A DNA stretch of 44,597 nucleotides. It comes from Victivallales bacterium (lineage in GTDB: Bacteria > Verrucomicrobiota > Lentisphaeria > Victivallales > UBA1829). A program made the translations under genes and the position numbers. Below the pieces are notes generated by a model. The model worked only from the letters and a program-made list of their open reading frames with translations, did not search any database and had not been told where the DNA came from. Within the stretch, counting starts at the first letter, position 1. Each line of letters starts with the position of its first letter. Location of the stretch: NCBI GenBank assembly GCA_045639225.1, contig JAZUCR010000697.1:1-44597 (forward strand). The letters run 5' to 3'. Shown one piece after another: positions 2,640-31,516 of this stretch.

Positions 2640-5507
2640 TTAGTCGTAAATGGATCTCTCATACTTGGCGGTATAAGCCAGGGCAGGCATGGCGGAAATG
2701 CCGACCGTAACAGAAACGTAGGGATTCCATTCCTTGCGCCAGCGCTTCTTCGAACTGGAATATTCCCGGTCATTGGAAATACCTGTCGCCAGAATCAGAT
2801 ACCAGCAGTGGAAATCCCGGCGGAATATGACACCCAGACCGTCGATCAGGTCTTCATCGATGTCGTAAGAAGCGTAAATCCGGCCCTTAAGCCGTTTGTC
2901 GAAGGTGGGGAAAGCCAGGCTGGCGCTTACAGTCTGTTCCCTGGAGACAAAACTTTTGAAAGCAGTTGTGGCATTGATCATAGCCAGAGTGCTGCCCATG
3001 GAATACACCGTCCGCTGAGCATACGCATCGGAATAGTTATACCGGATAGTAAGATTCCAGTCCGTGGCGAACTTGTAATTGAAACCGGCATTGAACTTGT
3101 TGATCAAATTCCAGCTCAAACCAGGCCGGCCCACATTCTTTTTACCCCGGTAGACCTCATAATCATGATCATTATTGTTGCCCACATCCAGAAGCAGTTC
3201 GGTAAAAAAGGACAGTTTGTCAGTCGGCGTGAAACTCAGAATCGTCCCCAAATCTCCGATATGATTGAAATTGTCGGTCTTTTCGAAATGGAAATCCCAG
3301 TAATTTTCCATGGAAATCCATTGATAAAGCCGTTCATTCCGGCGGGTTTGCAGACGATTTTGAATACCAAGCCGGACAAATGCCGTTTTTTCAATCTGGT
3401 CGACTTCATCGAAATAATAAAGGTGCTGATAATCTTCAGTGGGTTTCGGAATATAAACCAGATTGAAATAAGGCACAGCCACATGGCGGAGTCCGTCGAT
3501 CTGCCAGAAGGCGTTCCGCGGGGTCTGCCAGGCACGGGAAAATTTAACATTTCCTTCCAATCCCAATTCCACAGCAAACCGGTAGCGGGCACCGCCTTTG
3601 TCATCATAGTTTTCCACTTTCAGCAGATAATCGGGCCAGCGGTATTTTTCATCCACAGCATACATCGTATAGAGATCCTCTACGGACATAGCTTTTTTCG
3701 AGGATTTCGAATAAGCGGTGAACCGTCCCACTGCACGCGGGATCAAGTTCAGAAAACCGAAGAGCTGAAACGGATAATACAAGGCATGAAGGGTATCAAA
3801 ACGATAGGATTCATAATCTTTCGGGTCGTTGAAATAGCCGGAAAAAGCGTCCGGATCGACTTCCTTCAGATATTTGGAAGCCCCGTATTTGTTCGTAGGT
3901 CCGCAGCGCTGGACGATTTCATTCCACCGATAGGTCTGATTTTCTTTTGCCAGGATGCTGTAAATATTCAGGTTGGGATTCATGCCGCGCGGGAAATCAT
4001 ATTCCCGCCACCGCGTCCGGTAGTATCCGGCCGAAGTTTCACCCTGATAATAGATATTTTTGAAGAGCTCCTGGCGGAAAAAATCAAACCGCAGTTCAGG
4101 CAGCCGTTCCACTGTGGTGTAGAAATCATTGACCCGGAACGTTGTCTGCAGCGTGGCGGAAAAACGTTCGCCCTGATATTCCACCGCGGCATAAGACGGC
4201 GGCTGCACATTCTCATTGTAACGGTGTTCGAAGAAATCTTCGAGGAAATTGAAATCGCTGATCACGTCCACCACACCGCGAAAATCAAGGTGCGGCGTCA
4301 GATGAGTCAAATTCGCCAGCCGGAATTCATACCGGTCATTCGGCAATTCATATCGTCCGTATTGCGAATACCATTCCTTGCGGGTCCAGCCCGCCTCCAC
4401 CTTATTCCAGTCATCATTCCAGTAATTGTAGGGGTTGCGGTCCCGCAAGTAATAGGCAAAAAATTCCGTTTTCGAATTGGCGGTCAGAATATCGACCGAG
4501 GCGCCCAGCCCCAGTCCGCGGTCAGAATAATAATCCACCATCAGGCCCGCCCGGATCACCGCCGGTTCTTCGATAATGTCGAATTCTTTGAGGGTCCTCA
4601 GATAATATCCCCAATCCGAATCTTTACCGAATTCGAACCGAATACCGAAAGAGTTGGAATCTGCCGGTTTATAGAGGGCCGGCAGCCAGAAAACCGGAAC
4701 ATTCCACACGTTGATGAAATCGCTCAGCATCAGCAGACTGTGTTCGCCCTGGTCCGGATTGTAATTATGAAGGCTTCGGTTCGCTTCCCGCGGTTTCAAT
4801 GTCATAACCGAAGATTTGATCCCGTAATGGGCATTCGAATCCATCTCATATTCGCAGGTCGTCATCCGCGCGTCGAACATTTTGACGGTTCCATTAGGAT
4901 AACGTTCCGCCAGAAAACCGCGGAAATACATATACCCGGCTTTGATAAAGAAATTCCGGAACTGGAATGCTCCGGTTTCCAGGCTGCCCGAAGCCCGCTC
5001 TGCCGACAAATACGCACAGTTCGATATCACGGTCGCACGAATCGTCTGATTTCCGTCCGGACTGGTATTGATCCCCTCCGCTATAACTTTGTATACCGGC
5101 TGTTCCAGCAGTTTTTCGTATTCTTCCGGGGTCAGATTCCGTTGTTCAGATACCTGCGTCGCAAAGGCAACATTCCCGGCCGCCTCCAGGTCTTTGGAAA
5201 GCAGATTGACCGTGATGGCATCCGCGGTGACCTGAAGGTTTTTCACTTTGATCACGGCATGACCCCGGGCAATCAGATTCGAACCGACGTATTCATACGT
5301 GTCCGCACTCATATCGATATCTTCCCGGGTCAGCGAACCGATTTGAGGCATCTGGAAAGTATCTTTCAGGTTGTTTACACCGCCCAGACCGGTTATGCCG
5401 CCGGTTCCTCCGATCGCCGCGCCCTGCAGAGACAGCAATCCCCCCGACGCTGTCACCAGAAGCATCAGTATCAATTTGCTTTTTTTCGTCAGTTCAGAAA
5501 AAAACAC
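2640..5507 (-). CDS. Large outer-membrane beta-barrel protein, LptD/OstA-like (LPS assembly)
   Basis: 955-aa ORF with a hydrophobic N-terminal signal (KLILMLLVTASGGLL). An OstA-like N-terminal pattern follows (ADTYEYVGSNLIARGHAVIKVKNLQVTADAITVNLLSKDLEAAGNVAF). The remainder is very long and rich in Tyr/Asn/Asp/aromatic residues, typical of a beta-barrel, and ends in aromatic-rich strands. This is a family-level call by eye. Confidence 0.55.
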   Translation of the reverse strand: MFFSELTKKSKLILMLLVTASGGLLSLQGAAIGGTGGITGLGGVNNLKDTFQMPQIGSLTREDIDMSADTYEYVGSNLIARGHAVIKVKNLQVTADAITVNLLSKDLEAAGNVAFATQVSEQRNLTPEEYEKLLEQPVYKVIAEGINTSPDGNQTIRATVISNCAYLSAERASGSLETGAFQFRNFFIKAGYMYFRGFLAERYPNGTVKMFDARMTTCEYEMDSNAHYGIKSSVMTLKPREANRSLHNYNPDQGEHSLLMLSDFINVWNVPVFWLPALYKPADSNSFGIRFEFGKDSDWGYYLRTLKEFDIIEEPAVIRAGLMVDYYSDRGLGLGASVDILTANSKTEFFAYYLRDRNPYNYWNDDWNKVEAGWTRKEWYSQYGRYELPNDRYEFRLANLTHLTPHLDFRGVVDVISDFNFLEDFFEHRYNENVQPPSYAAVEYQGERFSATLQTTFRVNDFYTTVERLPELRFDFFRQELFKNIYYQGETSAGYYRTRWREYDFPRGMNPNLNIYSILAKENQTYRWNEIVQRCGPTNKYGASKYLKEVDPDAFSGYFNDPKDYESYRFDTLHALYYPFQLFGFLNLIPRAVGRFTAYSKSSKKAMSVEDLYTMYAVDEKYRWPDYLLKVENYDDKGGARYRFAVELGLEGNVKFSRAWQTPRNAFWQIDGLRHVAVPYFNLVYIPKPTEDYQHLYYFDEVDQIEKTAFVRLGIQNRLQTRRNERLYQWISMENYWDFHFEKTDNFNHIGDLGTILSFTPTDKLSFFTELLLDVGNNNDHDYEVYRGKKNVGRPGLSWNLINKFNAGFNYKFATDWNLTIRYNYSDAYAQRTVYSMGSTLAMINATTAFKSFVSREQTVSASLAFPTFDKRLKGRIYASYDIDEDLIDGLGVIFRRDFHCWYLILATGISNDREYSSSKKRWRKEWNPYVSVTVGISAMPALAYTAKYERSIYD

Positions 5508-6534: not shown

Positions 6535-7371
6535 TTATTTCTTACACTTTTCGAGCACGCTTTCGAACCCTTTGCAGATCTTCGTTTCGAGGTATTTCAG
6601 CTTGGTCGAGGCCGGACACAGATAAACGGTTCCGGTTCCCGTATAAGTGTTGACCAGTCCTTCGCCGGAAAGCACCGAAGCAAAGAGTCCCCGGGTCGCT
6701 TTCTCCACCTTGAAATCCAGCGAGGCCGACCAGATGATCGCGAAATTCCCGTCCACGACCAGTTTTTCGTTGTTCAGTTCGATCTTTTCGAGCGGCCCGT
6801 CGGATTCCAGAATTACGCGTCCCTTCCCCGAAACCGTAGTCTGATAAAGTCCGTGTCCGGAGAGCAGACCCGTTCCCAGACTGTTCTTCCGGATTCCCAG
6901 CACCACACTGAGTTCGGAGGCATAATATCTGCCGTGATTGATGAGCCAGTCCTGGTTGTCGACGTCGAAAACCGTATATTGTCCGTAGGTCGGTTCCAGC
7001 ACGAGTTCCCCGGTGCCGGAATAGATCGGACGCCGGACCGATTCCCCGGTCAGCAGCGCTGCTCCGATCCCCGGGCCCGATGAGGAATCCATGGAGATGT
7101 TCCCCTTGTAATAATACATCGCTCCGGCTTCCGTCTGCAATGCGGTGTCATCCATTTTCACATGGACAAACTGCATGTCTTCTTTTTTGATGATTTCGAA
7201 CGTCAAAGCGTTGCGGGCGGCATCGGCGAGCGCCTTTTCGATGACCTGCTGTTTCTGCTGCTGGTCGGCTTCCTTCTTTTCAGCGCGTTTTTCGCTGATG
7301 TTCTGTGCGGTCTGTTTGGCCGCTTCGGCAGCCTGGGCGGCTTTCTCCTTCAGATTGTCTAAAAATGCCAT
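6535..7371 (-). CDS. AIM24-family (DUF124/TIGR00266-like) protein with a coiled-coil N-terminal extension
   Basis: The body matches the AIM24 pattern: TEAGAMYYYKGNISMD, LLTGESV, GTGELVLEP, LLSGHGLYQTTVSGKGRVILES, VVDGNFAIIWSASLDF, LSGEGLVNTYTGTGTVYLCP. About 55 N-terminal residues are Ala/Lys/Gln/Glu-rich and helical. The start is set at the ATG at 7371, preceded by GGAGGG at about 5 nt; the track ORF starts at 7383. Confidence 0.82.
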   Translation of the reverse strand: MAFLDNLKEKAAQAAEAAKQTAQNISEKRAEKKEADQQQKQQVIEKALADAARNALTFEIIKKEDMQFVHVKMDDTALQTEAGAMYYYKGNISMDSSSGPGIGAALLTGESVRRPIYSGTGELVLEPTYGQYTVFDVDNQDWLINHGRYYASELSVVLGIRKNSLGTGLLSGHGLYQTTVSGKGRVILESDGPLEKIELNNEKLVVDGNFAIIWSASLDFKVEKATRGLFASVLSGEGLVNTYTGTGTVYLCPASTKLKYLETKICKGFESVLEKCKK

Positions 7372-7427
7372 TTTTCCCTCCATTGGGTTTTGATCTTCGT
7401 TCGCGTCTTTGCGAACGGAGGGAAAAT

Positions 7428-7473
7428 TAACGGCAGGGGTCTGTCATTTTGTGTCAGACCCGGTTGATCTCCG
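7428..7473. repeat. Intergenic repeat copy 1 with hairpin (GGGGTCTG..CAGACCCC region) between LRAT-like gene 1 and the AIM24 gene
   Basis: TAACGGCAGGGGTCTGTCATTTTGTGTCAGACCCGGTTGATCTCCG is nearly identical (2 mismatches by eye) to 8253-8298. It contains a 7-bp stem GGGTCTG/CAGACCC and TGTCA-N5-TGTCA. Confidence 0.85.
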
Positions 7474-7510
7474 ACGGATTATCTTGTTTTTTCGGATTGG
7501 AAAATGAAAT

Positions 7511-8194
7511 TCAGTAATCCCATTTTACCCAGGTCAGAGATCCGAGTTTATACTTGATCATGGTTTCAAGCATTCCGAACAACTTGCAGGGATTATCGAA
7601 CTCTCCGGTGATACATCCGCAGGTAAACTGGTGGCAGTTGTCAAAGAAAACATTATAATTCCTTCTGCTGCCGGCCATGGATCTGGCCCGGTTCGCAATG
7701 CTCTTTCTGCAGAGCGGTGTCCCATCGGATTTTGCCGCGTAAAAAATGGCTTCCGCGGGATTGTCGCCATCCAGCCGTGCAACAAAATCCTGCGGTGATA
7801 CGATCTCAATATTGCCGTCGCCGCTCAGGTGGACGATTTCATCGTCTCCGATATAGATCCCCGTGTGTTCCACCACCACAGCCAGATTGCAATATACCGG
7901 CGTACCGGGTGCGGGTTCGGAACAGGTTCGAAAGACTTTCTGAATCGGATTATCCAGTTCGAGTTTTCTTCTTATTTCATCAAGAGTATCGAGGGGATTC
8001 GGTCCACGCGGACCATCCGGCACGGGAAATCCCGGCCCCCGGAAAATACTCCCGAGACTGATCGAATTGCTGTCATCATCGGAAGCATCGTCATCGTCTT
8101 CCGATGTGTTATTGTCCCACAGTTCATCCCAGGCTTTTCCAACCTCTTTGCGGAATTGTTCGTTTGCCTCATCGAAAAAATCAAAAAGTCCCAT
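7511..8194 (-). CDS. LRAT-type NlpC/P60 (NC-domain) papain-like protein, paralog 1, with an acidic/Pro-rich N-terminal region
   Basis: MGLFDFFDEANEQF... followed by the catalytic signature EHTGIYIG, IVHL and NCHQFTCGC (the His / His / Cys layout of the LRAT/PLAAT family). The start is set at the ATG at 8194, preceded by AAAGGAGGATTCGAA. About 60% identical to the adjacent paralog across the catalytic domain, by eye. Confidence 0.8.
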   Translation of the reverse strand: MGLFDFFDEANEQFRKEVGKAWDELWDNNTSEDDDDASDDDSNSISLGSIFRGPGFPVPDGPRGPNPLDTLDEIRRKLELDNPIQKVFRTCSEPAPGTPVYCNLAVVVEHTGIYIGDDEIVHLSGDGNIEIVSPQDFVARLDGDNPAEAIFYAAKSDGTPLCRKSIANRARSMAGSRRNYNVFFDNCHQFTCGCITGEFDNPCKLFGMLETMIKYKLGSLTWVKWDY

Positions 8195-8252
8195 TTCGAA
8201 TCCTCCTTTTTTCGGATAATAAGATGCAGAGCTTTGCAATTTCCGGGAAAAA

Positions 8253-8308
8253 TAACGGCAGGGGTCTGTCATTTTATGTCAGACCCGGTTGATCTCCGCG
8301 GTTTTTTG
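8253..8308. repeat. Intergenic repeat copy 2 (hairpin plus a non-coding relic of the WYL gene 3' end)
   Basis: 8253-8298 matches 7428-7473. 8279-8308 (TCAGACCCGGTTGATCTCCGCGGTTTTTTG) matches 8926-8955 with 1 mismatch; the latter encodes the last codons and stop of the WYL regulator. Confidence 0.85.
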
Positions 8309-8326
8309 TGTCATACAGAAGGTTTT

Positions 8327-8842
8327 TCAGTAATCCCATTTCAGCCAGGTGAATTTGCCCAGTCTGTCCTGAATCTCCATGTTGACCATCCAGAAGAAAT
8401 TACAGGAATTTTCGAAGTCGCCGGAAATGCAGCCGCAGGTAAACTGATGACAGTTGTCAATGACCCAGTGATAATTGCGTCTCCTTCCGACCATGGATCT
8501 TGCCCGGTTTGCAATGTTCTTTTTCCCCAAAGCTTTTCCCGCTCTGCCGGCACAATAAATGGAAACTGCGGGGTTTAAACCATCCAGACGGGCTACAAAA
8601 TTCCGCGGCGAGACGGTTTCTATATCGCCATCGCCGTTCAGGTGCACGATCTCACCGTTTCCGATATATATTCCGGTATGTTCCGCCACTACTGCCAGTT
8701 TGCAGTAGACCGGGGTCCCCGGCGCGGGTTCGCCTTCCAGCCATGGAATTCTGCGGGGTTCTCTTACCAAAACGGGCGTTCGGGGCATCATACCGGGAGT
8801 CGGTACGCCGATAATCGGACCACAGATATCAAAAAGTCCCAT
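8327..8842 (-). CDS. LRAT-type NlpC/P60 (NC-domain) papain-like protein, paralog 2
   Basis: MGLFDICGP... then EHTGIYIG, IVHL and NCHQFTCGC. The C-terminus LGKFTWLKWDY compares with LGSLTWVKWDY in paralog 1. The 5' UTR and RBS are near-identical to those of paralog 1 (AAAGGAGGATTCGAAATGGGACTTTTTGAT). Confidence 0.8.
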   Translation of the reverse strand: MGLFDICGPIIGVPTPGMMPRTPVLVREPRRIPWLEGEPAPGTPVYCKLAVVAEHTGIYIGNGEIVHLNGDGDIETVSPRNFVARLDGLNPAVSIYCAGRAGKALGKKNIANRARSMVGRRRNYHWVIDNCHQFTCGCISGDFENSCNFFWMVNMEIQDRLGKFTWLKWDY

Positions 8843-8925
8843 TTCGAATCCTCCTTTTTCCGGATAATAAGCTCCAGCGCTTTGCTTTTTCCGGAAAAAT
8901 TTATCTGAATGGGACTTTTTTTATC

Positions 8926-9918
8926 TCAGACCCGGTTGATTTCCGCGGTTTTTTGCGCCAGATTACAGATTTTTTCCCGCAGCCATTGGGGCTCCAGCAC
9001 CTCGACATTGCCGCCCTCCCCGAGGATCCAGCGGAGCGCTTCCGCTTCCGTCGACGGCGGCAAAACCACGATCAGCGATCCATCCTCCTGCGGCGCGATA
9101 ACGAGCTTTTTCGCCTTGCGCTGCTCGTAAAGATAATAGGCGATTTCAGGCGCGCATTTCACGCGGATGTTTTCGATTTTCGGATAATTGAACAGACCTT
9201 CTTTCTCCGTCTGCTTCAGAATATCTTTGCGGATCTTGAACTCGAAACGGGTAATTTCCGCCTTCTGGATGCGGAAGATCGCCAGCACGATCACTTTATC
9301 ATCGGCGAGATTCACTCCTTTGAGATACCAATTGCCCTTGTGATATGCCACGATATGCGGTTCGAAGTCCCGTTCGGATACCTCGCCGGTGGAGCCTTTC
9401 TGGTAGACGAGATGCAGCACATGCCGTTCCCGCCACGCTTGAAAAACCGTGCCGAAGATCTCCGGCGGAATGGTGGTCTTGCCGCAGGAGGCGATCAGTA
9501 AGGTTTCGATATACGTCTGGTCCAGCAGTTCGGAATTGTTGTCCGCAATGGAATTGTCCACCGCGTCCCGGATCTGTTCCTTGATTGGCGACGGCATGAT
9601 TTTTTCCGCGAGTTGAGCTCCCAGCATGGCGGACATCACCATCTCATCGTCCATGAACGGGACTTTCAGTTCCCAGCAAGTATTGGTCAGAAAATATCCG
9701 TTGTTTTCCTGCGAAAATTCGATGGGTGCGCCGAAATCCTTCCGGAGCGTATCCAGATCGCGCATGATGGTGCGTTCCGAACAGGAGATATTGAGGTTTT
9801 CATCCAGCTCCATCTCCCGGAGTTTGCGTGTGAACGTGGAGGCGTTGGGATAGTTGTTTTTCCGCATTTCCGCCACAAACCGGATCATGCGCAGCAGCTG
9901 TTTTTTGTTGATCGGCAT
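8926..9918 (-). CDS. WYL-domain transcriptional regulator (N-terminal wHTH, WYL, C-terminal extension; BrxR/CapW-like architecture)
   Basis: 330 aa. N-terminus: QLLRMIRFVAEMRKNNYPNASTFTRKL...SERTIMRDLDTLRK (HTH). Central region: ERHVLHLVYQKG...ERDFEPHIVAYHKGNWYLKGV (WYL-type motif). The C-terminal region IRVKCAPEIAYYLYE...ALRWILGEGGNVEVLEPQWLRE is typical of the WCX-like tail. Confidence 0.85.
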   Translation of the reverse strand: MPINKKQLLRMIRFVAEMRKNNYPNASTFTRKLREMELDENLNISCSERTIMRDLDTLRKDFGAPIEFSQENNGYFLTNTCWELKVPFMDDEMVMSAMLGAQLAEKIMPSPIKEQIRDAVDNSIADNNSELLDQTYIETLLIASCGKTTIPPEIFGTVFQAWRERHVLHLVYQKGSTGEVSERDFEPHIVAYHKGNWYLKGVNLADDKVIVLAIFRIQKAEITRFEFKIRKDILKQTEKEGLFNYPKIENIRVKCAPEIAYYLYEQRKAKKLVIAPQEDGSLIVVLPPSTEAEALRWILGEGGNVEVLEPQWLREKICNLAQKTAEINRV

Positions 9919-9965
9919 GGTCCTCCCCTTTCGTTTTTGATAATATACCTCTAATCTTTTACAAT

Positions 9966-9993
9966 GTCAAACGCGGATGACAAAAAATGTCAT
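9966..9993. promoter_or_regulatory. Candidate operator in the divergent WYL / plus-strand operon promoter region
   Basis: TGTCA-AACGCGGA-TGACA-AAAAA-TGTCA: three alternating half-sites. They include the perfect palindrome ATGACAAAAAATGTCAT (9977-9993), in the 120-bp gap between divergent starts at 9918 and 10039. Confidence 0.4.
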
Positions 9994-10038
9994 ACCGTGC
10001 GGGTTATACTATGCACAGAACAACCCGAGAGGAGAAAA

Positions 10039-10479
10039 ATGGAAATCAATTACAAGCATCCCGAGTTCGCCGTCTGGCATTTGGCCGATACGCCGATCCA
10101 AACCATCCCGTATGGGGCGCTGATCAAATGGTTCGACCAGGTGATCCAGTTCGGATTCCACCTCGGCGGCGGCATTATTGCCTGGCGGGATGGTCTGATC
10201 TCGGCGGATAATCTTGATACCGATCCCGGTCTGCCGTGGAAACGGAAGACCTGTGTTTTGGCTCAACAGGGAAAGGCGGTTGTTTTCAGGGAACCGGCCA
10301 TGCGTTCGAATTCCTGTTCCGGACTTTATCACAGCCGGCAGGATTTCATTTCCGGATGTCTCGGCGAGGATCTGGCGGACTGGGGAAACTTTCCCGTCTG
10401 GATTTTCGAACGTTACGGCAAATGTTTTCTGCATCCCGTCACCCATGATGCCGAATATGAAAAATCATGCCATGAGTAA
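10039..10479 (+). CDS. Hypothetical protein (146 aa), first gene of the plus-strand arm
   Basis: ORF with GAGAGGAGAAAA immediately before the ATG at 10039 (MEINYKHPEF...). I recognise no domain. It contains several Cys/His (CSGLYH, CFLHPVTH, SCHE). Confidence 0.6.
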   Translation: MEINYKHPEFAVWHLADTPIQTIPYGALIKWFDQVIQFGFHLGGGIIAWRDGLISADNLDTDPGLPWKRKTCVLAQQGKAVVFREPAMRSNSCSGLYHSRQDFISGCLGEDLADWGNFPVWIFERYGKCFLHPVTHDAEYEKSCHE

Positions 10480-10584
10480 GAATTTATGCAAAAATTCGGA
10501 CGAAAACCTTTTGCTATGACGGAAAATGTCGCACTGCTTCCCTTATATTACCCTGACACCATCAACCCCGCAGGAGGAGAAGCT

Positions 10585-11187
10585 ATGGAAACACTTGACA
10601 CCCGGTTCCGCCATTTTCAACAACACAACAAAGGCGACGGCTCGCTGCAGTCGGTCACTTTCTGGGGCGACAAAACCAAGATTCAGGCCCTCACCAGTTT
10701 CCGGTACGGCCGGCATGAAATTTATAATGAGTATATGCGGATCAACTGCGAGGAAAAGTCTTACCGGGAGAGAGTGGTCGACCGTCCCGAATACAATGCC
10801 TCGGAATACGACCCGACTCAGTGGCGGATCATCTGCAGCTATGAAGAAATCGTCAAGCGGGTCCGGCAGCTGCATCTGGCCGTCGAAGTTTTTGCATCGA
10901 CCGATGCCGATCTCAAGCAGCTGGTAAAGCCCGTTCCGGAATTTTCCATTACCGGATCGATGTGGCAGGAAAAAATGGTCGAGTTCCGGGAAAAGGAACA
11001 GTCCGGGACTGAGGACACCCAAATGGTTTTCTTCAATTCGATCACCTGCTGTAAATCCCTTCTGCCGCTCTATAAATATATTCGGGAAAACGGCGAATTC
11101 GACCGTGAGATCGAAGCTCTCATCTTCGGATTCTACCGGCACGACATGGCACAGTATCAGAAAGACACCGGAAAGGACGGTTTTTGA
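10585..11187 (+). CDS. Hypothetical protein (about 200 aa)
   Basis: The track ORF runs 10486-11187, but only the ATG at 10585 (METLDTRF...) has a strong RBS (CAGGAGGAGAAGCT). No recognisable domain. Confidence 0.6.
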   Translation: METLDTRFRHFQQHNKGDGSLQSVTFWGDKTKIQALTSFRYGRHEIYNEYMRINCEEKSYRERVVDRPEYNASEYDPTQWRIICSYEEIVKRVRQLHLAVEVFASTDADLKQLVKPVPEFSITGSMWQEKMVEFREKEQSGTEDTQMVFFNSITCCKSLLPLYKYIRENGEFDREIEALIFGFYRHDMAQYQKDTGKDGF

Positions 11188-11338
11188 GGTCTATGGAATA
11201 TCCCCTGACGCAAAATGACAGAGGCATGAAATTATATTCCCTTAAAAAAATATGAAAATTTTTTCGTTCCGCACGATAAACAACCAGTCCATGCAGCGTA
11301 TAATAGATGCAGGGCGCAATCGAAAGGAGAAAGGTCAC

Positions 11339-11743
11339 ATGACGGAAAAAGAAAAAAACATCCTCACCCAGGAACTGTGGGCGCTGGTCTCGCTGGGATT
11401 CGACGCCACGAAACATGACTTCGAGATCATGGAAAAAATCATCAAATGCGTCGCGAAGGAAGATTCCGGCGAAATGACCCCTTACAAACGCAAGGTCATC
11501 GAGGAACTTCAGCTGGAGTGGCGTTTCCTGAGATCCCTCCACGAAGATCTCGCCGCAATCGCCGCCCGGCTCGAAAAGAGTGAAATCGTCCCCGCCGTTC
11601 CCGACCTGTCCATCAATGATGAGCTCTGGAAAGTCTGCAAATCCGGTGCCTCGGATGCGCTTTACGAAACCAGCGACAAAATCAGCGATTTTCAGTCCGC
11701 GCTTCAGGACTGCGCTTTTCAGCTTCAGGAGGTGTGCGCATGA
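11339..11743 (+). CDS. Hypothetical helical protein (134 aa)
   Basis: ATG at 11339 preceded by AAAGGAGAAAGGTCAC (MTEKEKNILTQELW...). The stop overlaps the next start (ATGA). No recognisable domain. Confidence 0.6.
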   Translation: MTEKEKNILTQELWALVSLGFDATKHDFEIMEKIIKCVAKEDSGEMTPYKRKVIEELQLEWRFLRSLHEDLAAIAARLEKSEIVPAVPDLSINDELWKVCKSGASDALYETSDKISDFQSALQDCAFQLQEVCA

Positions 11744-11934
11744 GTTCATTTGTTCCTATGCCGACCAGGATCCATCACTGGAAATGTCCGAAATGCGGGA
11801 AGGAAACTACCACCACGGAAAGACCGAATCCTCTGATCCATACGTGTCTGCCGCTGTTTTTCGGGTCCGCCCGGCCGCCGGTCTGTCCCAAATGCAAGGT
11901 CAAAATGGTCAAAATGTCGGTCTGGAGTGTGTGA
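11740..11934 (+). CDS. Small zinc-ribbon protein (64 aa, two CPKC pairs)
   Basis: MSSFVPMPTRIHHWKCPKCGKE...RPPVCPKCKVKM gives a CxxC...CxxC pattern. AGGAGG lies about 8 nt upstream, and there is an ATGA overlap with the preceding gene. Confidence 0.6.
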   Translation: MSSFVPMPTRIHHWKCPKCGKETTTTERPNPLIHTCLPLFFGSARPPVCPKCKVKMVKMSVWSV

Positions 11935-12022
11935 AATGCATATCCTGCTCGGAATTATAGCACTTATACTCGTGAAGTGGTACTTCAGAGATTATTGAGC
12001 AAAAAACTTGAAAGGAAGAAAA

Positions 12023-12547
12023 ATGAGTGATTTTGAAGAATTTGTGGATTGTCTTTCGGATGCGACCAAACAGCTGTTCAGCGACATCGAAGACGCATGG
12101 AATGAACTCAAAGAGGATCTGCGCGAAACCGTAACGGTCAAATATCTGCGCCCCGGCGGCGTGGCATACTGCCGTAAGGACGGGAAAAAGTTTTACGGCA
12201 TCCTCACCGGCACGGAGATCATTTCTCTCAACGGCGAGAATGAACCCGAATATATGGAATTGAAAGATTTCCTGCAGATGCACGATGCGGATACGCTCAA
12301 AGTCGCCGGGAAAAACCGTATCGCCGTCGGTTCCCATGAGGTGGATTTTGCCGCCCGGAACGCCGTCGAAGAGGAACGTTTTCCCTCCACGAAAACTTTC
12401 GTCCTGAAATGCCTCGGCGTGGAAGATACTGCGAAAGTCGATGATGCGCTCGAAAAGAAATTCGGTTCGTTCGAGTGGCTGACTTACGATCTGCCTGAAG
12501 AAACTGCCGAAGACTCGGAAGAAGAACAGGAAGAAGCTGCCGAATGA
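12023..12547 (+). CDS. Degenerate LRAT-like NlpC/P60 paralog lacking both catalytic histidines, with an acidic C-terminal tail
   Basis: PGGVAYCRKDGKKFYGILTGTEIISLNGENEPEYMELKDFL aligns by eye with PGTPVYCNLAVVVEHTGIYIGDDEIVHLSGDGNIEIVSPQDFV of paralog 1 (His to Phe, His to Ser). FGSFEWLTYDL aligns with LGSLTWVKWDY. The tail is PEETAEDSEEEQEEAAE. RBS GAAAGGAAG. ATGA overlap with the kinase gene. Confidence 0.7.
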   Translation: MSDFEEFVDCLSDATKQLFSDIEDAWNELKEDLRETVTVKYLRPGGVAYCRKDGKKFYGILTGTEIISLNGENEPEYMELKDFLQMHDADTLKVAGKNRIAVGSHEVDFAARNAVEEERFPSTKTFVLKCLGVEDTAKVDDALEKKFGSFEWLTYDLPEETAEDSEEEQEEAAE

Positions 12548-13665
12548 ATTTGTTCTGGTCACATCTGTTTTCCTCTTCACCGAAGCGGACAGTCCGGCCG
12601 GCCCCGCGCAGGAAGCCTAAGGCACCGCCCGTCGGCGCCGACTGGCTGGCTCTGGCGAAGGCTCCGCCGGACCGTTCCCGCACGGTATATGATCCGACCG
12701 GTGCGGCTCTGGCGCTGCGGAAATCGGATGTCCTGGCACACGGCGGCGAAGGCGTGGTATATAATTTTGCAAAAAATCCCGCCTTCCTGATCAAAGTCTG
12801 CAAGGACGACACGCTGCGCGACAGCCGCAAACTGGCCGCTTTCCGCGACCGTCTCGATGCGATGCTGGCGCTGGTGGAATGCCGCAACGCCCCATTCCTC
12901 GCCTGGCCGCTGATGCCCGTTTTCGATCAGAATAAAAACGTTATCGGATTTGTGATGCGCAAAACCTCCGGACGAACCCTTCGGGCGCTTTACGCGCCGT
13001 GTCAGGTCAGACGCTTCTTTCCCGGCTGGGACCGGCTGAGCGTGACCCGGGTCGCTTTGAATCTGGTCAACGCCGTCCAGATGCTGGCGCGCCACCGCGT
13101 GCTGGTCAACGATTTCAACCCGGACAACTTCCTCATCGATCCCTTCGGAAATGTCCGCCTGATCGACTGCGACAGTTTTCAGATCCCCGGCGCGGGCGAC
13201 AACCAGAACACGTTCCTCACCCGCACCTTCACCCCGGAATATACCGCTCCCGAACTGCTGTTCCATCCGGAGCTCTTCAACCGGGAACGCACCCCTGAGC
13301 AGGTCCGGTTCAGCCTCGCCGTCGTGGTCTACATGATCCTGATGAGCGGACTCCATCCCTATGCCCAGTGCGGCGGGACCGATCCGGTCGACAACGTCAA
13401 ATCGGGCAAATGCCCGCTGACCCGCCGCGGCGGCGTCCGCCTTCCGGTCGGATGGTTCAAATCCGTCAGCTGGCTCACGCCCGGGTTGAAACACCTTTTC
13501 ATCCGGATGTTTGTCGACGGCCACAGCGATCCGCTGAAACGGCCCATGCTCGGCGAACTCAAATCCGAACTCGAAAATTTTATCATCGTAATGCGTTCAA
13601 GTAAAAACCCCAACCAAAGGGCAATCCTGCCCGACAAAGCAAAAAGAAAGGACAAAACCGCATGA
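12544..13665 (+). CDS. Hanks-type (eukaryote-like) protein kinase, TerY-P triad / YegI-like
   Basis: G-loop HGGEGVVY, Lys in FLIKVCK, catalytic loop VNDFNPDNFLI, metal-binding LIDCDSF (DFG equivalent), and TPEYTAPE (APE). The N-terminus is a basic, Pro-rich region. Confidence 0.85.
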   Translation: MNLFWSHLFSSSPKRTVRPAPRRKPKAPPVGADWLALAKAPPDRSRTVYDPTGAALALRKSDVLAHGGEGVVYNFAKNPAFLIKVCKDDTLRDSRKLAAFRDRLDAMLALVECRNAPFLAWPLMPVFDQNKNVIGFVMRKTSGRTLRALYAPCQVRRFFPGWDRLSVTRVALNLVNAVQMLARHRVLVNDFNPDNFLIDPFGNVRLIDCDSFQIPGAGDNQNTFLTRTFTPEYTAPELLFHPELFNRERTPEQVRFSLAVVVYMILMSGLHPYAQCGGTDPVDNVKSGKCPLTRRGGVRLPVGWFKSVSWLTPGLKHLFIRMFVDGHSDPLKRPMLGELKSELENFIIVMRSSKNPNQRAILPDKAKRKDKTA

Positions 13666-14372
13666 ACGACTACACCGAAGAAACCGCCCTCGACGTCACC
13701 AACCCCGCTCCCCGCTGCCCCGTCATCCTGATGCTGGACACCTCCGGCAGCATGTCCGGCGCGCCGTTACGCGAACTCCAGGAAGGGCTCACCCAGTTCC
13801 TGCGCGAGACCAGCGACGACGAAACCGCCAGCATGAGCGTGGAACTCGAAGTCATCACCTTCGGCGGCAATACCGAAATCGCCGCCCCGTTCGCACCCGT
13901 GAACGTGGTTAACGACAATCCGCCGATTCTCGACGCCAACGGCTCCACTCCGCTGGGCGAAGCCCTCAGACTCGCCGATTCCGAGCTCAAAGCACGCCGC
14001 CGTCTCTACAAGCAGAAAGGCATCTCCAGCTACAAACCGTGGATCATCCTGATGACCGATGGATGTCCCAATGACGACTGGAAAAGCGCCGCCGCGTCCA
14101 TGAAGCAGATGGGCGAAGAAAAACGTCTGCAGTACATCGGCATCGGCATCGGCGATGAGGCCGATTTCGACACTCTGCGCCAAATCCTTCCCGAACATCC
14201 GGGCCCGGTCAAACTCAAAGGTCTGTGCTTCCGTGAATTCTTCAAATGGCTGACCGATTCGCTCAAAAGCGTTTCCGCCAGTTCCGTGGCACAGCAGGAC
14301 GCGGTCGTCCTGGGCAATGTCAACTCCTGGGCCGACCTCGCCGGCACCCCGATGCTGGAGGAAGGTAAATGA
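13662..14372 (+). CDS. von Willebrand factor A domain protein, TerY/YegL-like
   Basis: MIDAS motif LMLDTSGSMSG, GSTPLGEAL, and IILMTDGCPND. About 236 aa, typical of TerY-like vWA proteins. ATGA overlaps on both sides. Confidence 0.9.
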   Translation: MNDYTEETALDVTNPAPRCPVILMLDTSGSMSGAPLRELQEGLTQFLRETSDDETASMSVELEVITFGGNTEIAAPFAPVNVVNDNPPILDANGSTPLGEALRLADSELKARRRLYKQKGISSYKPWIILMTDGCPNDDWKSAAASMKQMGEEKRLQYIGIGIGDEADFDTLRQILPEHPGPVKLKGLCFREFFKWLTDSLKSVSASSVAQQDAVVLGNVNSWADLAGTPMLEEGK

Positions 14373-15139
14373 GCGAGTTCCGGGGATTCGCTGTATCGGT
14401 TCCCGGCAACGGACACATCCGCAGGGAGATCCCCTGTCAGGATGCGTCCGGCGTGTGGCTTGCGCCGCGTCCGTGCCTGATCGTGTGCGACGGACGCGGC
14501 AGCGCCCGCTATTCCCATTTCGGCGCACGGGCGGCGGTGAAAGCCTTCCGCAGCCAATGTGCCGTGATGGATGGTCTGCTTTATTCCATCCTGGACTGCG
14601 AGCGCTGGAACGACCGCCGCTGGCTCCGTTTCTGCAATCTGATGATCCGGACCGTCTGTCAGCAGAAAAAGGAACTCGCCGAACAGTATCAGTGCCCGGA
14701 ATCCGAGTTCGATTTCACGATCGCGTTTGCTGTCTGGGGCAAAGCACGCTGCGGCTTCTTCCAGGTCGGCGACGGCGCCATCGTCATCCGCGAGGGTGAA
14801 GAGAATTGTTATTCGCTCTTTCCGCCGGACAAAGGGGAATACGACAATGAAACACGTTTTCTCCGGCCCGAGGCTGAGATCCGCCGCGATTACCATGCCC
14901 GGCTGATTGCCTCGGACGACATCGACGGCATTGCGATCACGAGTGACGGTCCGGAATTCCTGATGTTCGATCTTGCGGAAATGACACCCGGTCCGATTTT
15001 CAACAAAATGTTCGATGATTGTTCTGCCGGGAATCTGACGAGACAGGACCTGCTGGATTATCTGACCCGGGGCTGCTGGGCGAAAGATCCCCGCGGCAAT
15101 GACGACCGCAGTATCGCCATACTGTCTATGACAGAATAA
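14369..15139 (+). CDS. PP2C-family protein phosphatase (PP2C_2 type, YegK/PphC-like)
   Basis: NGHIRREIPCQDASGV, LIVCDGRGSA, FQVGDGAIVI, and GIAITSDGPEFL: the conserved Asp-containing motifs of bacterial PP2C_2 phosphatases found in TerY-P triads. Confidence 0.85.
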   Translation: MSEFRGFAVSVPGNGHIRREIPCQDASGVWLAPRPCLIVCDGRGSARYSHFGARAAVKAFRSQCAVMDGLLYSILDCERWNDRRWLRFCNLMIRTVCQQKKELAEQYQCPESEFDFTIAFAVWGKARCGFFQVGDGAIVIREGEENCYSLFPPDKGEYDNETRFLRPEAEIRRDYHARLIASDDIDGIAITSDGPEFLMFDLAEMTPGPIFNKMFDDCSAGNLTRQDLLDYLTRGCWAKDPRGNDDRSIAILSMTE

Positions 15140-21023: not shown

Positions 21024-21077
21024 ACCTTAGGAAAAGATAAATAAATAACCAGTATGGTATTGGGGAAAGAGGTCAAC

Positions 21078-22178
21078 ATGAAAGTCAATTTGAAGAAAGA
21101 TGCGCTGCTGAAAGCGCTGGTGAAGGTAAGCAACATCATTCCGAACCGGACAACTCTTCCGGTTCTTGCCAATGTGCTGCTTGAAGCTGAAAACGGAAAA
21201 CTTACTCTTACGACCACCGATCTGGAACTGCGGATCACCACGACAATAGAAGCGGAAGTGGAGGCTCCCGGAGTGACGACTTTGCCGGCAAAACGTCTGC
21301 TTGGCCTGGTTTCCAAGTTCAAAGGTGAAAATCTGATGATGGAATCCAATGAAAAACATCATACGAAAATCTGTTGCGGCACGGCGAATTTCATGATCCT
21401 GGGTCTGACTCCGGAAGATTTCCCCGTTCCGGTGGATTTCCAGCCGCTGCGCAGCATCAAGCTCAAACAGCCTGATTTTGCCCGCGTTCTCGACCGGATC
21501 TCCTATGCTGTAAGCATCGATGATTCCAGAAAAGTCCTTCAGGGTATTCTGCTTTCGATCAAAGAAGGCAATATGACTGCGGTTGCCACCGACGGAAAAC
21601 GCCTGGCGCTGGTCGAAAAGCTTCTGGAAGGCACCGCCGAAGGTGCCGACGGCGATGTGATCATCACCATCAAGGTTGCCAATGAAGTCAAACGCATTCT
21701 GGAAAAAGAAGGCGAAGTTCAGATGGAGATCGGTGAAAAACAGGTTGTGTTCCGTCTGAATGAGACCGTGATCTTCTCGAAGCTGATCGAAGGCAACTAT
21801 CCGAATTACCGTCAGGTCATTCCGGCCGGCTTCAACAAGAAGATCTCGGTTCCGACCGGTGATTTTGTGGATGCTCTGGAAATCGTCAGCATTCCGCTCA
21901 GCGATGCTTCTTCTTCCTTCGTCAAGATTACTTTCACGGACAATAAACTGGTGTTCGAAGCGAACAGCAATATCGGTGAAGGTAAGGAATATATCAATAT
22001 CGAGTATGCGGATCAGGAAGATATTTCCCTGTCTTTCAATCCGCAGCTGCTGGCCGATCCGTTCAAACATATCGGTGTCGATAATGTGATCGTCAAGATC
22101 AATGATGCATTCAGCCCGATTGCCCTGGAAAGCGGCGACGGTTTCCTGTATGTCATCATGCCGATGAGAAACAAATAA
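21078..22178 (+). CDS. dnaN: DNA polymerase III beta sliding clamp
   Basis: MKVNLKKDALLKALVKVSNIIPNRTTLPVLANVLLEAENGKLTLTTTDLELRI..., about 366 aa, ending in YVIMPMR. Confidence 0.93.
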   Translation: MKVNLKKDALLKALVKVSNIIPNRTTLPVLANVLLEAENGKLTLTTTDLELRITTTIEAEVEAPGVTTLPAKRLLGLVSKFKGENLMMESNEKHHTKICCGTANFMILGLTPEDFPVPVDFQPLRSIKLKQPDFARVLDRISYAVSIDDSRKVLQGILLSIKEGNMTAVATDGKRLALVEKLLEGTAEGADGDVIITIKVANEVKRILEKEGEVQMEIGEKQVVFRLNETVIFSKLIEGNYPNYRQVIPAGFNKKISVPTGDFVDALEIVSIPLSDASSSFVKITFTDNKLVFEANSNIGEGKEYINIEYADQEDISLSFNPQLLADPFKHIGVDNVIVKINDAFSPIALESGDGFLYVIMPMRNK

Positions 22179-22204
22179 GTTCTCCGGACTGTTCGAAAAC
22201 GATC

Positions 22205-22243
22205 TTCTGCCGGGTTTTCGGATCCGGCAGAAATATTTTTTTC
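22205..22243 (+). terminator. Rho-independent terminator after dnaN
   Basis: TTCTGCCGG (22205-22213) pairs with CCGGCAGAA (22224-22232) as a 9-bp stem with a 10-nt loop, followed by ATATTTTTTT. Confidence 0.65.
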
Positions 22244-22257
22244 AAGGACGGCTGATT

Positions 22258-23343
22258 ATGATAATAGAGTCTCTCAAGCTCGAAAATTTCAGAAATATCA
22301 GCCGCGCCGAACTGCAGTTCGATTCCGATGCTGTTTTTTTCGAAGGGGGCAACGGTCAGGGAAAAACTTCTCTGCTGGAAGCAGTTTTTTACGTGGCCAA
22401 TCTGCGTTCGTTCCGAACCTTGAAAATAAATGAGCTGAAAAAACTGGGCTGTCCCTCTTTTCATTTATCGCTTTCATTTCTGAAAAAGCAAGGCTGGAAA
22501 TCGCAGCTTGAGGTCGATTGCGGTTTGGTGCGCACCTTGCAGGCCGACCGGGTCCCGGTCAGTAAAGCCAGTGATTTTACCGGCAAGATCAAAACCATCG
22601 CTTTTCTGCCGGACGATCCTTTGATCATCAGCGGTCCGTCTCTGCTGCGCCGCCGTTTTTTCGATATGTTCATTTCCCTGCTGGACCGAAGCTATTTCAT
22701 GGATCTGCAGAATTATCTCCAGTCATTAAGGTCACGGAATATTCTGCTGAAAAATCATAACTGCAACTTGGATATTCTGCGTTCCTACTCGACCGTGCTG
22801 GCTTCTTCCGGATCTGAGATTGTCCGGAAAAGGGCCAAATATGTCGAGCTCATCTGTGGTTTGATGAAAAAGCTTTTTGAAGAATTGTATCCCTCCTTAT
22901 CCAATTTTGAAATCAGAATGGATTACACAAAGGAAACGTTCGAACCGGAGTCTTACCTGAAAAAAGCAGAAAACGACCTGAAACGCGACCTGCAGCGCGG
23001 ATTTACCACGTTCGGGCCGCATCTGGATGATTTCGAGTTTCTTTTTGACGGAAAATCAATGCGTGCTTTCGGTTCACGCGGACAATGCCGGATGACCTCG
23101 CTGATTTTGAAATTGGCGGAACTCGATGCTGTCCGCGAGGTCAGCGGTGCCTTGAATGATACGGTGGTGCTGGTCGATGATGCGACTGCCGATCTCGATC
23201 TGCATGCCCGGCAGGCTTTTTCGGAAAAAATCCGCACTGCCGGACAGGTTTTCTTTGCTTTCACTGAAATTCCGCCGGAATTCGAACTGGAAAAAGCCAA
23301 TCATTTCAAGGTCAAATCCGGGGAAATTGAAAAATCAAATTAA
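22258..23343 (+). CDS. recF: DNA replication and repair protein RecF
   Basis: LKLENFRNI, Walker A GGNGQGKTSLLEA, signature-like region, and Walker B VVLVDDATADLD. 361 aa, directly downstream of dnaN. Confidence 0.9.
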   Translation: MIIESLKLENFRNISRAELQFDSDAVFFEGGNGQGKTSLLEAVFYVANLRSFRTLKINELKKLGCPSFHLSLSFLKKQGWKSQLEVDCGLVRTLQADRVPVSKASDFTGKIKTIAFLPDDPLIISGPSLLRRRFFDMFISLLDRSYFMDLQNYLQSLRSRNILLKNHNCNLDILRSYSTVLASSGSEIVRKRAKYVELICGLMKKLFEELYPSLSNFEIRMDYTKETFEPESYLKKAENDLKRDLQRGFTTFGPHLDDFEFLFDGKSMRAFGSRGQCRMTSLILKLAELDAVREVSGALNDTVVLVDDATADLDLHARQAFSEKIRTAGQVFFAFTEIPPEFELEKANHFKVKSGEIEKSN

Positions 23344-31495: not shown

Positions 31496-31516
31496 AAGAA
31501 CAGGGAGAAAGCGACA

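Follow-up and report, generated by a model that had tools for sequence, protein, structure and literature searches.

A candidate WYL-controlled locus of Lentisphaeria that combines LRAT-like proteins with a TerY-P-like triad

Results

A two-armed block inserted among housekeeping genes

The window analyzed here is the complete 44,597-bp NCBI contig JAZUCR010000697.1 from a Victivallales bacterium (assembly GCA_045639225.1), and its subject is an 8.6-kb block (6535-15139) of 12 genes that includes a WYL-type transcription regulator, three members or presumed members of the LRAT-like family, an AIM24-family protein and a kinase/von Willebrand factor A (vWA)/PP2C triad. A sequence-only reading had described this block as two divergent arms lying between rsuA and dsbD around a 120-bp gap, and the open reading frame (ORF) map and the profile scans bore out this layout, including the strands and family assignments given there. 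The immediate neighbors are indeed an RsuA-type pseudouridine synthase and DsbD, with an aminotransferase, AsnC, CdsA, dnaN, recF and glutamate synthase (gltB) farther out; as these flanks are housekeeping genes, the block appears to be an insertion among them. The divergent gap spans 9919-10038. The tight translational coupling that had been claimed for the plus arm was located as four ATGA overlaps of 4 nt, at 11740, 12544, 13662 and 14369, which join orf3 to the zinc-ribbon gene, the LRAT paralog to the kinase, the kinase to the vWA gene and the vWA gene to the PP2C gene, respectively.

The features of the block are as follows, with corrected likely starts where these were assigned.

6535-7383, minus strand: AIM24-family protein (PF01987, 3e-44, 151 bits); corrected likely start at ATG 7371 (MAFLDNLKEK...)
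7420-7473, minus strand: putative junction element 5' of AIM24, made of a WYL 3'-end remnant and an operator-like 19-mer (7438-7456, one mismatch); 96% identity to the copy at 8245-8298
7511-8272, minus strand: LRAT_B, predicted intact LRAT/PLAAT-type NlpC/P60 protein (PF04970, 2.1e-10); corrected likely start at ATG 8194 (MGLFDFFDE...)
8195-8330, minus strand: putative junction element 5' of LRAT_B, made of a duplicate of the WYL gene's final ~50 nt, the 19-mer (8263-8281, exact) and a 5' untranslated region (5'UTR) in common with LRAT_A; repeats, with 83% identity to the natural WYL/LRAT_A junction at 8843-8955
8327-8842, minus strand: LRAT_A, predicted intact LRAT/PLAAT-type NlpC/P60 protein of 171 residues, MGLFDI... 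(PF04970, 2.2e-9)
8926-9918, minus strand: WYL-type transcription regulator with winged helix-turn-helix (wHTH), WYL and WCX domains (PF25583, 2e-17; PF13280, 1.1e-13; HTH_11, 6e-4; PADLOC WYL, 5e-29)
9965-9996, plus strand: candidate operator in the divergent gap; array kept in 10 loci, 19-mer exact at 9978-9996
10039-10479, plus strand: orf1, optional small protein of 146 residues; corrected likely start at 10039; homologs in seven related loci
10486-11187, plus strand: orf2, optional small protein; corrected likely start at 10585 (METLDTRF)
11339-11743, plus strand: orf3, invariant core protein of 134 residues modeled as a three-helix bundle, with 129 homologs; corrected likely start at 11339
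11740-11934, plus strand: four-Cys zinc-ribbon protein, CPKC...CPKC (Zn_ribbon_TFIIB, 1.8e-5); corrected likely start at 11740; found in 29 related loci
12023-12547, plus strand: LRAT paralog predicted to be catalytically dead, with an acidic tail at the C-terminus; invariant protein of the core, identified by BLASTP, hhalign and model-based fold matches; corrected likely start at 12023
12544-13665, plus strand: Ser/Thr protein kinase (Pkinase, 8e-10)
13662-14372, plus strand: stand-alone vWA protein with an intact metal ion-dependent adhesion site (MIDAS), DTSGS (VWA, 1.8e-10)
14369-15139, plus strand: PP2C-family protein phosphatase (PP2C_2, 4.5e-34)

The G+C content is uneven inside the block, the kinase-vWA-PP2C stretch (window 12500-15000) having 59-61% and the remaining block and the flanks 48-53%.

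A conserved core with variable cargo

To place the block among its relatives, 122 loci besides the window were surveyed, only contigs long enough being scored for the full layout of the core. The core that emerged comprises the WYL gene facing orf3, the zinc-ribbon gene, the dead LRAT paralog, the kinase, the vWA gene and the PP2C gene, with orf1 and/or orf2 as optional insertions between the gap and orf3 (orf1 in seven other loci and orf2 in five, among them L088, L101, L104 and L113). It was found on ~35 contigs in at least 12 distinct flanking contexts, and the WYL gene was divergent from the plus-arm operon in every related locus that reached that far. The core genes evolve under purifying selection, the dead enzyme included, with ratios of nonsynonymous to synonymous substitution (dN/dS) of 0.06-0.2. 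Homologs of the dead paralog and of orf3 came only from metagenome-assembled genomes (MAGs) of Lentisphaeria type and from gut and rumen metagenomes. As the flanks differ in each of these contexts (among them are glycoside hydrolases and Trk transport genes), the core does not occupy a fixed chromosomal site, and for the same reason a role in a housekeeping pathway was rejected.

In 7 of the 12 contexts, a live LRAT gene is found no more than 10 kb from the core, in seven different arrangements. The contexts, named after their representative loci, are arranged as follows.

Window: AIM24-LRAT-LRAT downstream of WYL
L001: LRAT opening the triad operon
L121: LRAT-WYL-LRAT
L090: an arm of six genes with IetA-like AAA-LRAT-WYL at its end
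L104: LRAT after WYL, and two further LRAT genes beyond PP2C
L009: WYL-LRAT, and two LRAT genes 3.4 kb off
L092: FGE-sulfatase-RtcB-PrfH after WYL, and two LRAT genes 3 kb past PP2C
L088 and L119: RtcB-PrfH after WYL, no LRAT
L097, L105 and L107: no LRAT in the DNA examined

The slot that LRAT and AIM24 genes hold in the window is thus filled elsewhere by another pair, since genes for RtcB and a PrfH-type homolog of RF-1 follow directly 3' of WYL in three contexts (L088, 5435-8230; L092, 5450-9455; L119, 5271-9287), preceded in two of the three by a gene resembling those of formylglycine-generating enzyme (FGE)-sulfatases. RtcB2-PrfH repairs ribosomes cut by colicin E3 (PMC9223846, PMC9304027), and RtcB-PrfH as an alternative cargo fits a conflict or damage theme. 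Besides RtcB-PrfH, the conflict or RNA-repair genes found around the core include RtcR, GajB-like, DRT-like and dynamin/Leo-like ones. These results, with the operator-like site described below, uphold the link between the two arms that had been proposed from the window.

An operator-like site in the gap and at the cargo junctions

BrxR with BREX and CapW with CBASS are WYL-regulated defence loci, and the WYL proteins PafBC and DriD are damage sensors. The architecture of the regulator in the block (wHTH, WYL and WCX) was confirmed by both Pfam and PADLOC. The divergent gap holds an array of TGWCA repeats (TGTCA/TGACA) that reads TGTCAAAC-N4-ATGACA-N5-TGTCATACC and that is kept in 10 related loci, including some whose WYL proteins are only ~65% identical. 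In a promoter scan, the top promoter-like site of the WYL gene scored 11/12, and its -35 element (TTGACA) coincides with the first half-site of the array.

The claim that the arms share a palindromic operator-like site also held up. The 19-mer TGACAWAAAATGWCAKACC occurs three times in the 44.6 kb, always within the block, where no copy is expected by chance: in the gap (9978-9996), 5' of LRAT_B (8263-8281) and 5' of AIM24 (7438-7456, with one mismatch). A looser form of the motif matched ~20 times in the core loci, at WYL 3' junctions and between cargo genes, against four matches in 1.42 Mb of unrelated loci. A degenerate fourth copy, TGACGCAAAATGACAGAGG, lies at 11203-11221 in the spacer between orf2 and orf3; it has four mismatches and was not counted, and it sits where the operator would be expected in loci that have neither orf1 nor orf2.

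The copies at LRAT_B and AIM24 are located within duplicated segments of the WYL 3' end. The segment 8272-8327 duplicates the final ~50 nt of the WYL gene (82% identity), the segment 7407-7473 duplicates 8232-8298 (88% identity), and LRAT_A and LRAT_B have 5'UTRs that share 90% identity. In L104 and L121, the same junction stands at its natural place after WYL. These data suggest that the cargo cassettes piled up through recombination at the 3' junction of WYL, each retaining a putative regulator site.

The locus resembles those of BrxR and CapW in that a wHTH-WYL-WCX regulator lies beside its presumed target genes with an inverted-repeat, operator-like site over its own promoter. It differs from them in its presumed targets, which are the kinase/vWA/PP2C operon and the LRAT, AIM24 or RtcB-PrfH cargo, and in that every cargo junction has a further copy of the operator-like motif, set within remnants of the WYL 3' end. 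We know of no report on BrxR or CapW that describes such a repetition.

Two predicted active LRAT-type enzymes

Both minus-arm LRAT proteins score above the PF04970 gathering cut-off of 24.3 (41.4 bits for LRAT_B and 38.1 bits for LRAT_A), and they are 65% identical over the catalytic domain. Each retains the triad of a permuted NlpC/P60 fold, with one His in EHTGIY, a second in VHL and the Cys in DNCHQF. In an alignment of 22 diverse homologs, these triad positions were invariant or nearly so, and H55, C131 and H132 of LRAT_A were invariant. By these retained residues, LRAT_A and LRAT_B are predicted to be catalytically intact members of the LRAT/PLAAT type. The best solved relatives of the family profile in a PDB profile search were human HRASLS2/PLAAT3 (1e-6 to 1e-4), while the NLPC_P60 Pfam match was weak and below threshold and the PDB matches to LytE/MepS were weak as well (E 0.03-0.15). 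The live proteins have neither a signal peptide nor a cell-wall-binding domain in their sequences.

Their likeness to mammalian PLAAT/HRASLS and LRAT proteins (PDB 4dpz, 4dot and 7c3z) therefore lies in the permuted NlpC/P60 fold, in the His...His...Cys order with an NCxHF-like motif (DNCHQF) and in an above-threshold Pfam LRAT match. Unlike the mammalian proteins, those of the window are bacterial and small (a domain of ~135 residues), are without the C-terminal membrane anchor, and carry a family-specific C-terminal WxxWDY motif and an N-terminal peptide of the MGLFD type. About 45% of the LRAT-like homologs (P0001-P0104) start with MG, hydrophobic residues and Asp (MGLFD...; in the window at 8840-8828 and 8192-8180), and AIM24, read from its likely start, begins with MAFLD (7371-7357). 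Such an N-terminus may resemble membrane-targeting N-terminal peptides like those of MinE, PspA and Vipp1.

A conserved LRAT paralog predicted to be inactive

The plus arm had been said to carry a histidine-less LRAT paralog, and three lines of evidence agree with this. The protein encoded at 12023-12547 matched LRAT_A in BLASTP (E 2e-8), its profile aligned with the LRAT profile in hhalign (probability 95%, E 3.6e-8), and its AlphaFold2 (AF2) model (one good model of five; pLDDT, the predicted local distance difference test, 81) found YiiX, H-REV107, AdPLA and HRASLS3 as top PDB fold matches, with probabilities of 0.92-0.99 and E values of only 0.01-0.07. The loss extends to the Cys, as 17 of 17 homologs have other residues in place of both His and the Cys of the triad (H to Y, H to S and C to T). 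A Pfam search gave no PF04970 match for this protein or for orf1. The dead paralog has in common with the live LRATs a GxFxW..YD motif at the C-terminus, specific to the family, and with LRAT_B an AWxEL helix at the N-terminus. It has 249 homologs of 69-98% identity, and its dN/dS of ~0.15 indicates purifying selection, hence a conserved pseudo-enzyme rather than a decaying gene. From its sequence and model, we consider it a non-catalytic member of the LRAT fold.

The sequence-only reading had further placed one rare LRAT-like family on both arms, with two active copies and one degenerate copy. The presence on both arms stands; the rarity does not, as a scan of one genome per species returned 210 species-level genome matches in many phyla.

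A similar case may be made for orf1, whose profile aligned with that of LRAT in register with both motifs (E 4.9e-4, probability 32%), which is suggestive of a second degenerate LRAT-fold paralog and is offered as a lead only. The profile of orf2 showed no relation to that of LRAT, and this candidate was dropped.

The accessory proteins of the plus arm

Neither orf1 nor orf2 had a family match in Pfam, PADLOC, PHROG or NCBIfam. An orf1 homolog in a metagenome contig (L097, 3298-3873) is broken by a frameshift, being either a pseudogene or an assembly error. The 129 homologs of orf3 (59-98% identity) are all 134 residues long; its dN/dS is 0.2, and its AF2 model consists of three long helices (pLDDT 92.9), for which a fold search of the PDB found only generic helical bundles and nothing better than E 0.35. 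The zinc-ribbon protein is a plain CPKC...CPKC ribbon. In several related loci (L001, 6023-6427; L092, 13094-13501; L009, 14494-14901; L105, 331-756), a gene for a small lipoprotein with a lipobox (LTATGC) lies 3' of PP2C; the window has none.

A triad that is TerY-P-like

The three triad genes adjoin in the order kinase-vWA-PP2C and are joined by the 4-nt overlaps. Profile searches recognized no domain beyond Pkinase in the 373-residue kinase, whose 90-residue tail has two Cys and no CxxC pairs. In PADLOC, the kinase gave only weak matches to PD-T4-6/mad6 (~3e-6), and with the TerY-P profiles the vWA protein reached E 0.045 against TerY and the PP2C and kinase gave none. The vWA protein matches phrog_28389, a phage family of unknown function, over its full length (2.7e-50), and, at 30-37% identity, three contigs of uncultured phages from the human gut. 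The members of the 90% cluster of the kinase are annotated only as hypothetical proteins of Lentisphaerae/Lentisphaeria MAGs.

As summarized in PMC11090510, TerY-P consists of a TerY-like vWA protein, a PP2C and a kinase with a fused zinc ribbon, and in the anti-phage version of Gao et al. 2020 an OB (oligonucleotide/oligosaccharide-binding) fold replaces the zinc ribbon; the attribution of an anti-phage TerY-P to Gao et al. was thus correct as relayed there. The triad of the window is like TerY-P in having adjacent, coupled genes for a stand-alone MIDAS vWA protein, a PP2C and a Ser/Thr kinase, with conflict-type neighbors and no obvious effector of its own. It is unlike TerY-P in its gene order, in a kinase with no recognized fused zinc ribbon or OB fold and a separate zinc-ribbon gene upstream, and in always following a helical-bundle protein and the dead LRAT and always having a divergent WYL regulator; the PADLOC TerY-P profiles, moreover, fail on it. 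Of the original assignment to TerY-P, the three adjacent domains remain, while no fused domain was recognized and the profile match is missing. Given the kinase with no recognized fused domain, the different gene order and the PADLOC mismatch, we classify the triad, by its sequence features, as TerY-P-like and not as a member of TerY-P.

The same applies to the block as a whole, in which PADLOC 2.0 recognized no complete catalogued defence system, its only hits being the generic WYL model and the weak kinase matches. The LRAT proteins, AIM24, orf1 to orf3, the zinc-ribbon protein and PP2C had no match in the PADLOC, PHROGs and NCBIfam libraries, except for AIM24 with TIGR00266 below its cut-off.

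AIM24 as a local addition

AIM24 matched PF01987 with 151.5 bits over profile positions 1-204 of 205 and TIGR00266 with 72.8 bits, below the cut-off of 96.6, and is therefore a member of the family and not an equivalog. Its PDB relatives are 1pg6 and 1yox, and it has an N-terminal extension of 60 residues rich in Lys, Glu and Ala. The co-occurrence with LRAT and the triad in other genomes that had been proposed as a check failed to appear, as none of the 122 other related loci has an AIM24 gene, and AIM24 was rejected as a conserved component. The sole tie to the system would be the local junction element with its 19-mer, not conservation.

A published, if loose, connection nevertheless exists, because AIM24 and the vWA/PP2C/kinase triad both occur in the network of Ter neighborhoods of Anantharaman 2012, as relayed in PMC5822837, where AIM24 is a frequent neighbor of TerD in Ter stress-response loci. 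Unlike those neighborhoods, the window has no TerB, TerC or TerD, and its AIM24 gene is attached via the WYL junction element. Yeast Aim24 affects tafazzin-linked cardiolipin remodeling (PMC3975624).

LRAT-like proteins outside the core

The LRAT loci studied were the best 80 of the 210 relatives, and these span Pseudomonadota, Cloacimonadota, Bacillota, Cyanobacteria, Campylobacterota, Lentisphaerota and others. The expectation that LRAT and the triad would co-occur across unrelated genomes was not borne out in this set, in which the triad accompanies LRAT in one close relative only (L009, a Victivallaceae MAG). A WYL gene clusters with LRAT within 5 kb in 9 of the 80 loci; seven of these nine, from Cloacimonadota, Ignavibacteriales, Vibrio, a gammaproteobacterial MAG and Insolitispirillum, have the two genes side by side in one orientation.

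A homolog of the AAA+ ATPase of L090 adjoins LRAT in Cloacimonadota (3e-97) and in Cetobacterium and matches IetA in PADLOC (1.8e-25). IetA-like ATPases thus stand beside LRAT in Lentisphaeria (L090, 6081-7664), Cloacimonadota (L026, 8196-9740) and Cetobacterium (L066, 3147-7855), much as IetA stands with a hydrolase partner in IetAS (Gao 2020). The partner here is an LRAT-type Cys-His enzyme and not the IetS subtilase, and the window has no such ATPase. The IetA-like ATPase and LRAT may form a separate, undescribed system. In L026 and L090, genes for a WYL regulator and a small protein rich in glycine accompany the pair.

The immediate neighbors of LRAT in 78 loci include YagK/YfjJ (5), ResIII (4), integrase (4), AAA_21 (3), AbiO, Nhi, a type I restriction endonuclease and AriAB, and also ordinary metabolic genes. 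In Aeromonas veronii (CP121832; L005, 10001-10543), a solitary LRAT-like gene is placed like a typical moron, sitting in opposite orientation between the holin/endolysin genes of a prophage and the late genes. No LRAT relative was found among the INPHARED phages and only four IMG/VR contigs had one, so a reading of LRAT as a phage lysis gene was dropped. Judged by these gene neighborhoods, the LRAT-like family behaves like a candidate effector that is mobile and often stands alone, and its link with the triad is specific to Lentisphaeria.

The rest of the window

The block is 6 kb away from dnaN and recF (21054-23343), which may place the contig close to a replication origin; the cumulative GC skew has a shallow minimum at ~25-26 kb. 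Three long ORFs of the window, at 2640-5507 (minus strand, 955 residues), 29786-32701 (minus strand, 971 residues) and 34227-36065 (plus strand, 612 residues), had no Pfam match at E <= 0.1 or 0.001.

Discussion

The observations first made on the window are confirmed, and the interpretation attached to them is supported in part: the two arms belong together and LRAT appears to be a preferred cargo, in an association confined to one lineage. The proposal that the triad senses an insult and directs LRAT effectors against membranes is kept as a hypothesis. From its gene content, the block looks like an undescribed bacterial conflict system. The TerY-P-like triad and the WYL-regulated conflict locus are known kinds; what is unusual is the dedicated pseudo-LRAT and the junction repeats that bear the operator-like site. 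Full-text searches found no paper linking LRAT-type bacterial proteins to WYL regulators, to anti-phage defence or to a kinase/vWA/PP2C triad.

Our preferred reading, which we hold tentatively and at not quite an even bet, is that the block is one WYL-controlled regulon specific to Lentisphaeria, conflict- or stress-like, with exchangeable cargo. The conservation of the core under purifying selection, the operator-like site with its junction copies, the placement of LRAT in seven arrangements and the motifs that the dead paralog has in common with the live LRATs speak for it, as do independent WYL+LRAT operons in Cloacimonadota, Ignavibacteriales, Vibrio and Alphaproteobacteria and the presence of LRAT in defence and mobile contexts. 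In such a regulon, WYL would repress both arms and every cargo cassette, and binding of a ligand derived from damage or infection to its WYL domain would lift this repression. The kinase, PP2C and vWA trio would then work as a phospho-switch, and the dead LRAT, as a substrate, adaptor or inhibitory partner, could be the non-catalytic component that couples this switch to the live LRATs. These, presumed cytoplasmic and bearing the hydrophobic MGLFD-type N-terminus, would attack or remodel inner-membrane phospholipid, leading to growth arrest or death, with AIM24, orf1 and orf2 as optional add-ons.

Several points weigh against this regulon. PADLOC matched no known defence model except WYL. The core is without LRAT in 5 of the 12 contexts (L088, L097, L105, L107 and L119), and LRAT is without the core in 74 of the 80 species-level loci, counted outside Lentisphaeria, so the link is facultative. 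All core loci belong to one lineage, and their contexts are not fully independent; AIM24 was confined to the window in the survey of 122 other loci. The junction copies of the 19-mer could act as an RNA hairpin or terminator and not as an operator, as they may fold into a 7-bp GC-rich hairpin with a U-rich stretch behind it. Finally, a lipid substrate and the role given to the dead paralog are what we purely infer from sequence.

The main competitor of a single regulon, which we regard as unlikely while taking it seriously, is that separate modules have met in a variable hotspot: a toxin-like WYL+LRAT module, a TerY-P-like triad with its accessories and AIM24 as a passenger, their adjacency being mere defence-island clustering. 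WYL+LRAT pairs with no triad in eight loci of other phyla are what one would expect of such modules, as are the five core contexts with no LRAT, the filling of the same position by RtcB-PrfH, FGE-sulfatase or an IetA-like AAA protein as alternative cargo, and an AIM24 gene unique to the window. It is harder to reconcile with the WYL gene of Lentisphaeria, which is always divergent from the triad operon across a conserved operator-like site even where LRAT is missing; with a core that itself holds an LRAT paralog; with the LRAT of L001, which is in one operon with the triad; and with cargo genes that carry the same motif as the gap. Because the LRAT link is facultative and stand-alone WYL+LRAT pairs exist elsewhere, this explanation keeps some weight.

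Distinctly less probable, in our view, is a damage-response regulon and not an immune one, in which WYL, like PafBC and DriD, is a sensor of nucleic-acid damage and turns on either RtcB-PrfH repair or acyl remodeling of phospholipid by LRAT together with AIM24, the triad tuning the response. The position of RtcB-PrfH directly downstream of WYL in three contexts would suit such a role, given the repair of colicin E3-damaged ribosomes by RtcB2-PrfH (PMC9223846, PMC9304027), and so would the strong sequence conservation of the core proteins. The recurrence of AIM24 as a TerD neighbor in Ter stress loci (PMC5822837) and the effect of yeast Aim24 on tafazzin-linked cardiolipin remodeling (PMC3975624) point the same way. 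However, each context has its own genomic position, the cargo is exchanged, the neighbors are of defence type and LRAT relatives occur in prophages and integrase islands, all of which is typical of conflict genes.

A more elaborate version that joins several of these elements strikes us as a long shot. In a guard- or decoy-type immune module, the dead LRAT would be a bait, wired to the kinase/vWA/PP2C triad, for whatever targets or activates LRATs, with live LRATs or other cargo (RtcB-PrfH, an IetA-like ATPase or AIM24) acting downstream, and cargo would be captured in an integron-like manner at a recombination-prone junction of the WYL 3' end and the operator, genes arriving pre-wired.

We think it very improbable that the LRAT-like proteins instead cleave protein or cell wall as peptidases or amidases, in the manner of classical NlpC/P60 enzymes: the sub-threshold NLPC_P60 match and the weak LytE/MepS matches would favor it, but the best matches are Pfam LRAT, above its gathering score, and human PLAAT, the His-then-Cys order is permuted, and the proteins have no signal peptide or cell-wall-binding domain.

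If the single-regulon reading is true, a TerY-P-type triad that is otherwise effector-less would gain a concrete output in LRAT-type lipid enzymes, as well as a dedicated pseudo-enzyme partner, and a WYL regulator would be seen to recruit new cargo by duplicating its own 3' junction. The widespread LRAT-like family, found with WYL regulators, with IetA-like ATPases, in prophages and in integrase islands, would then be a candidate conflict effector that figures in no defence catalogue.

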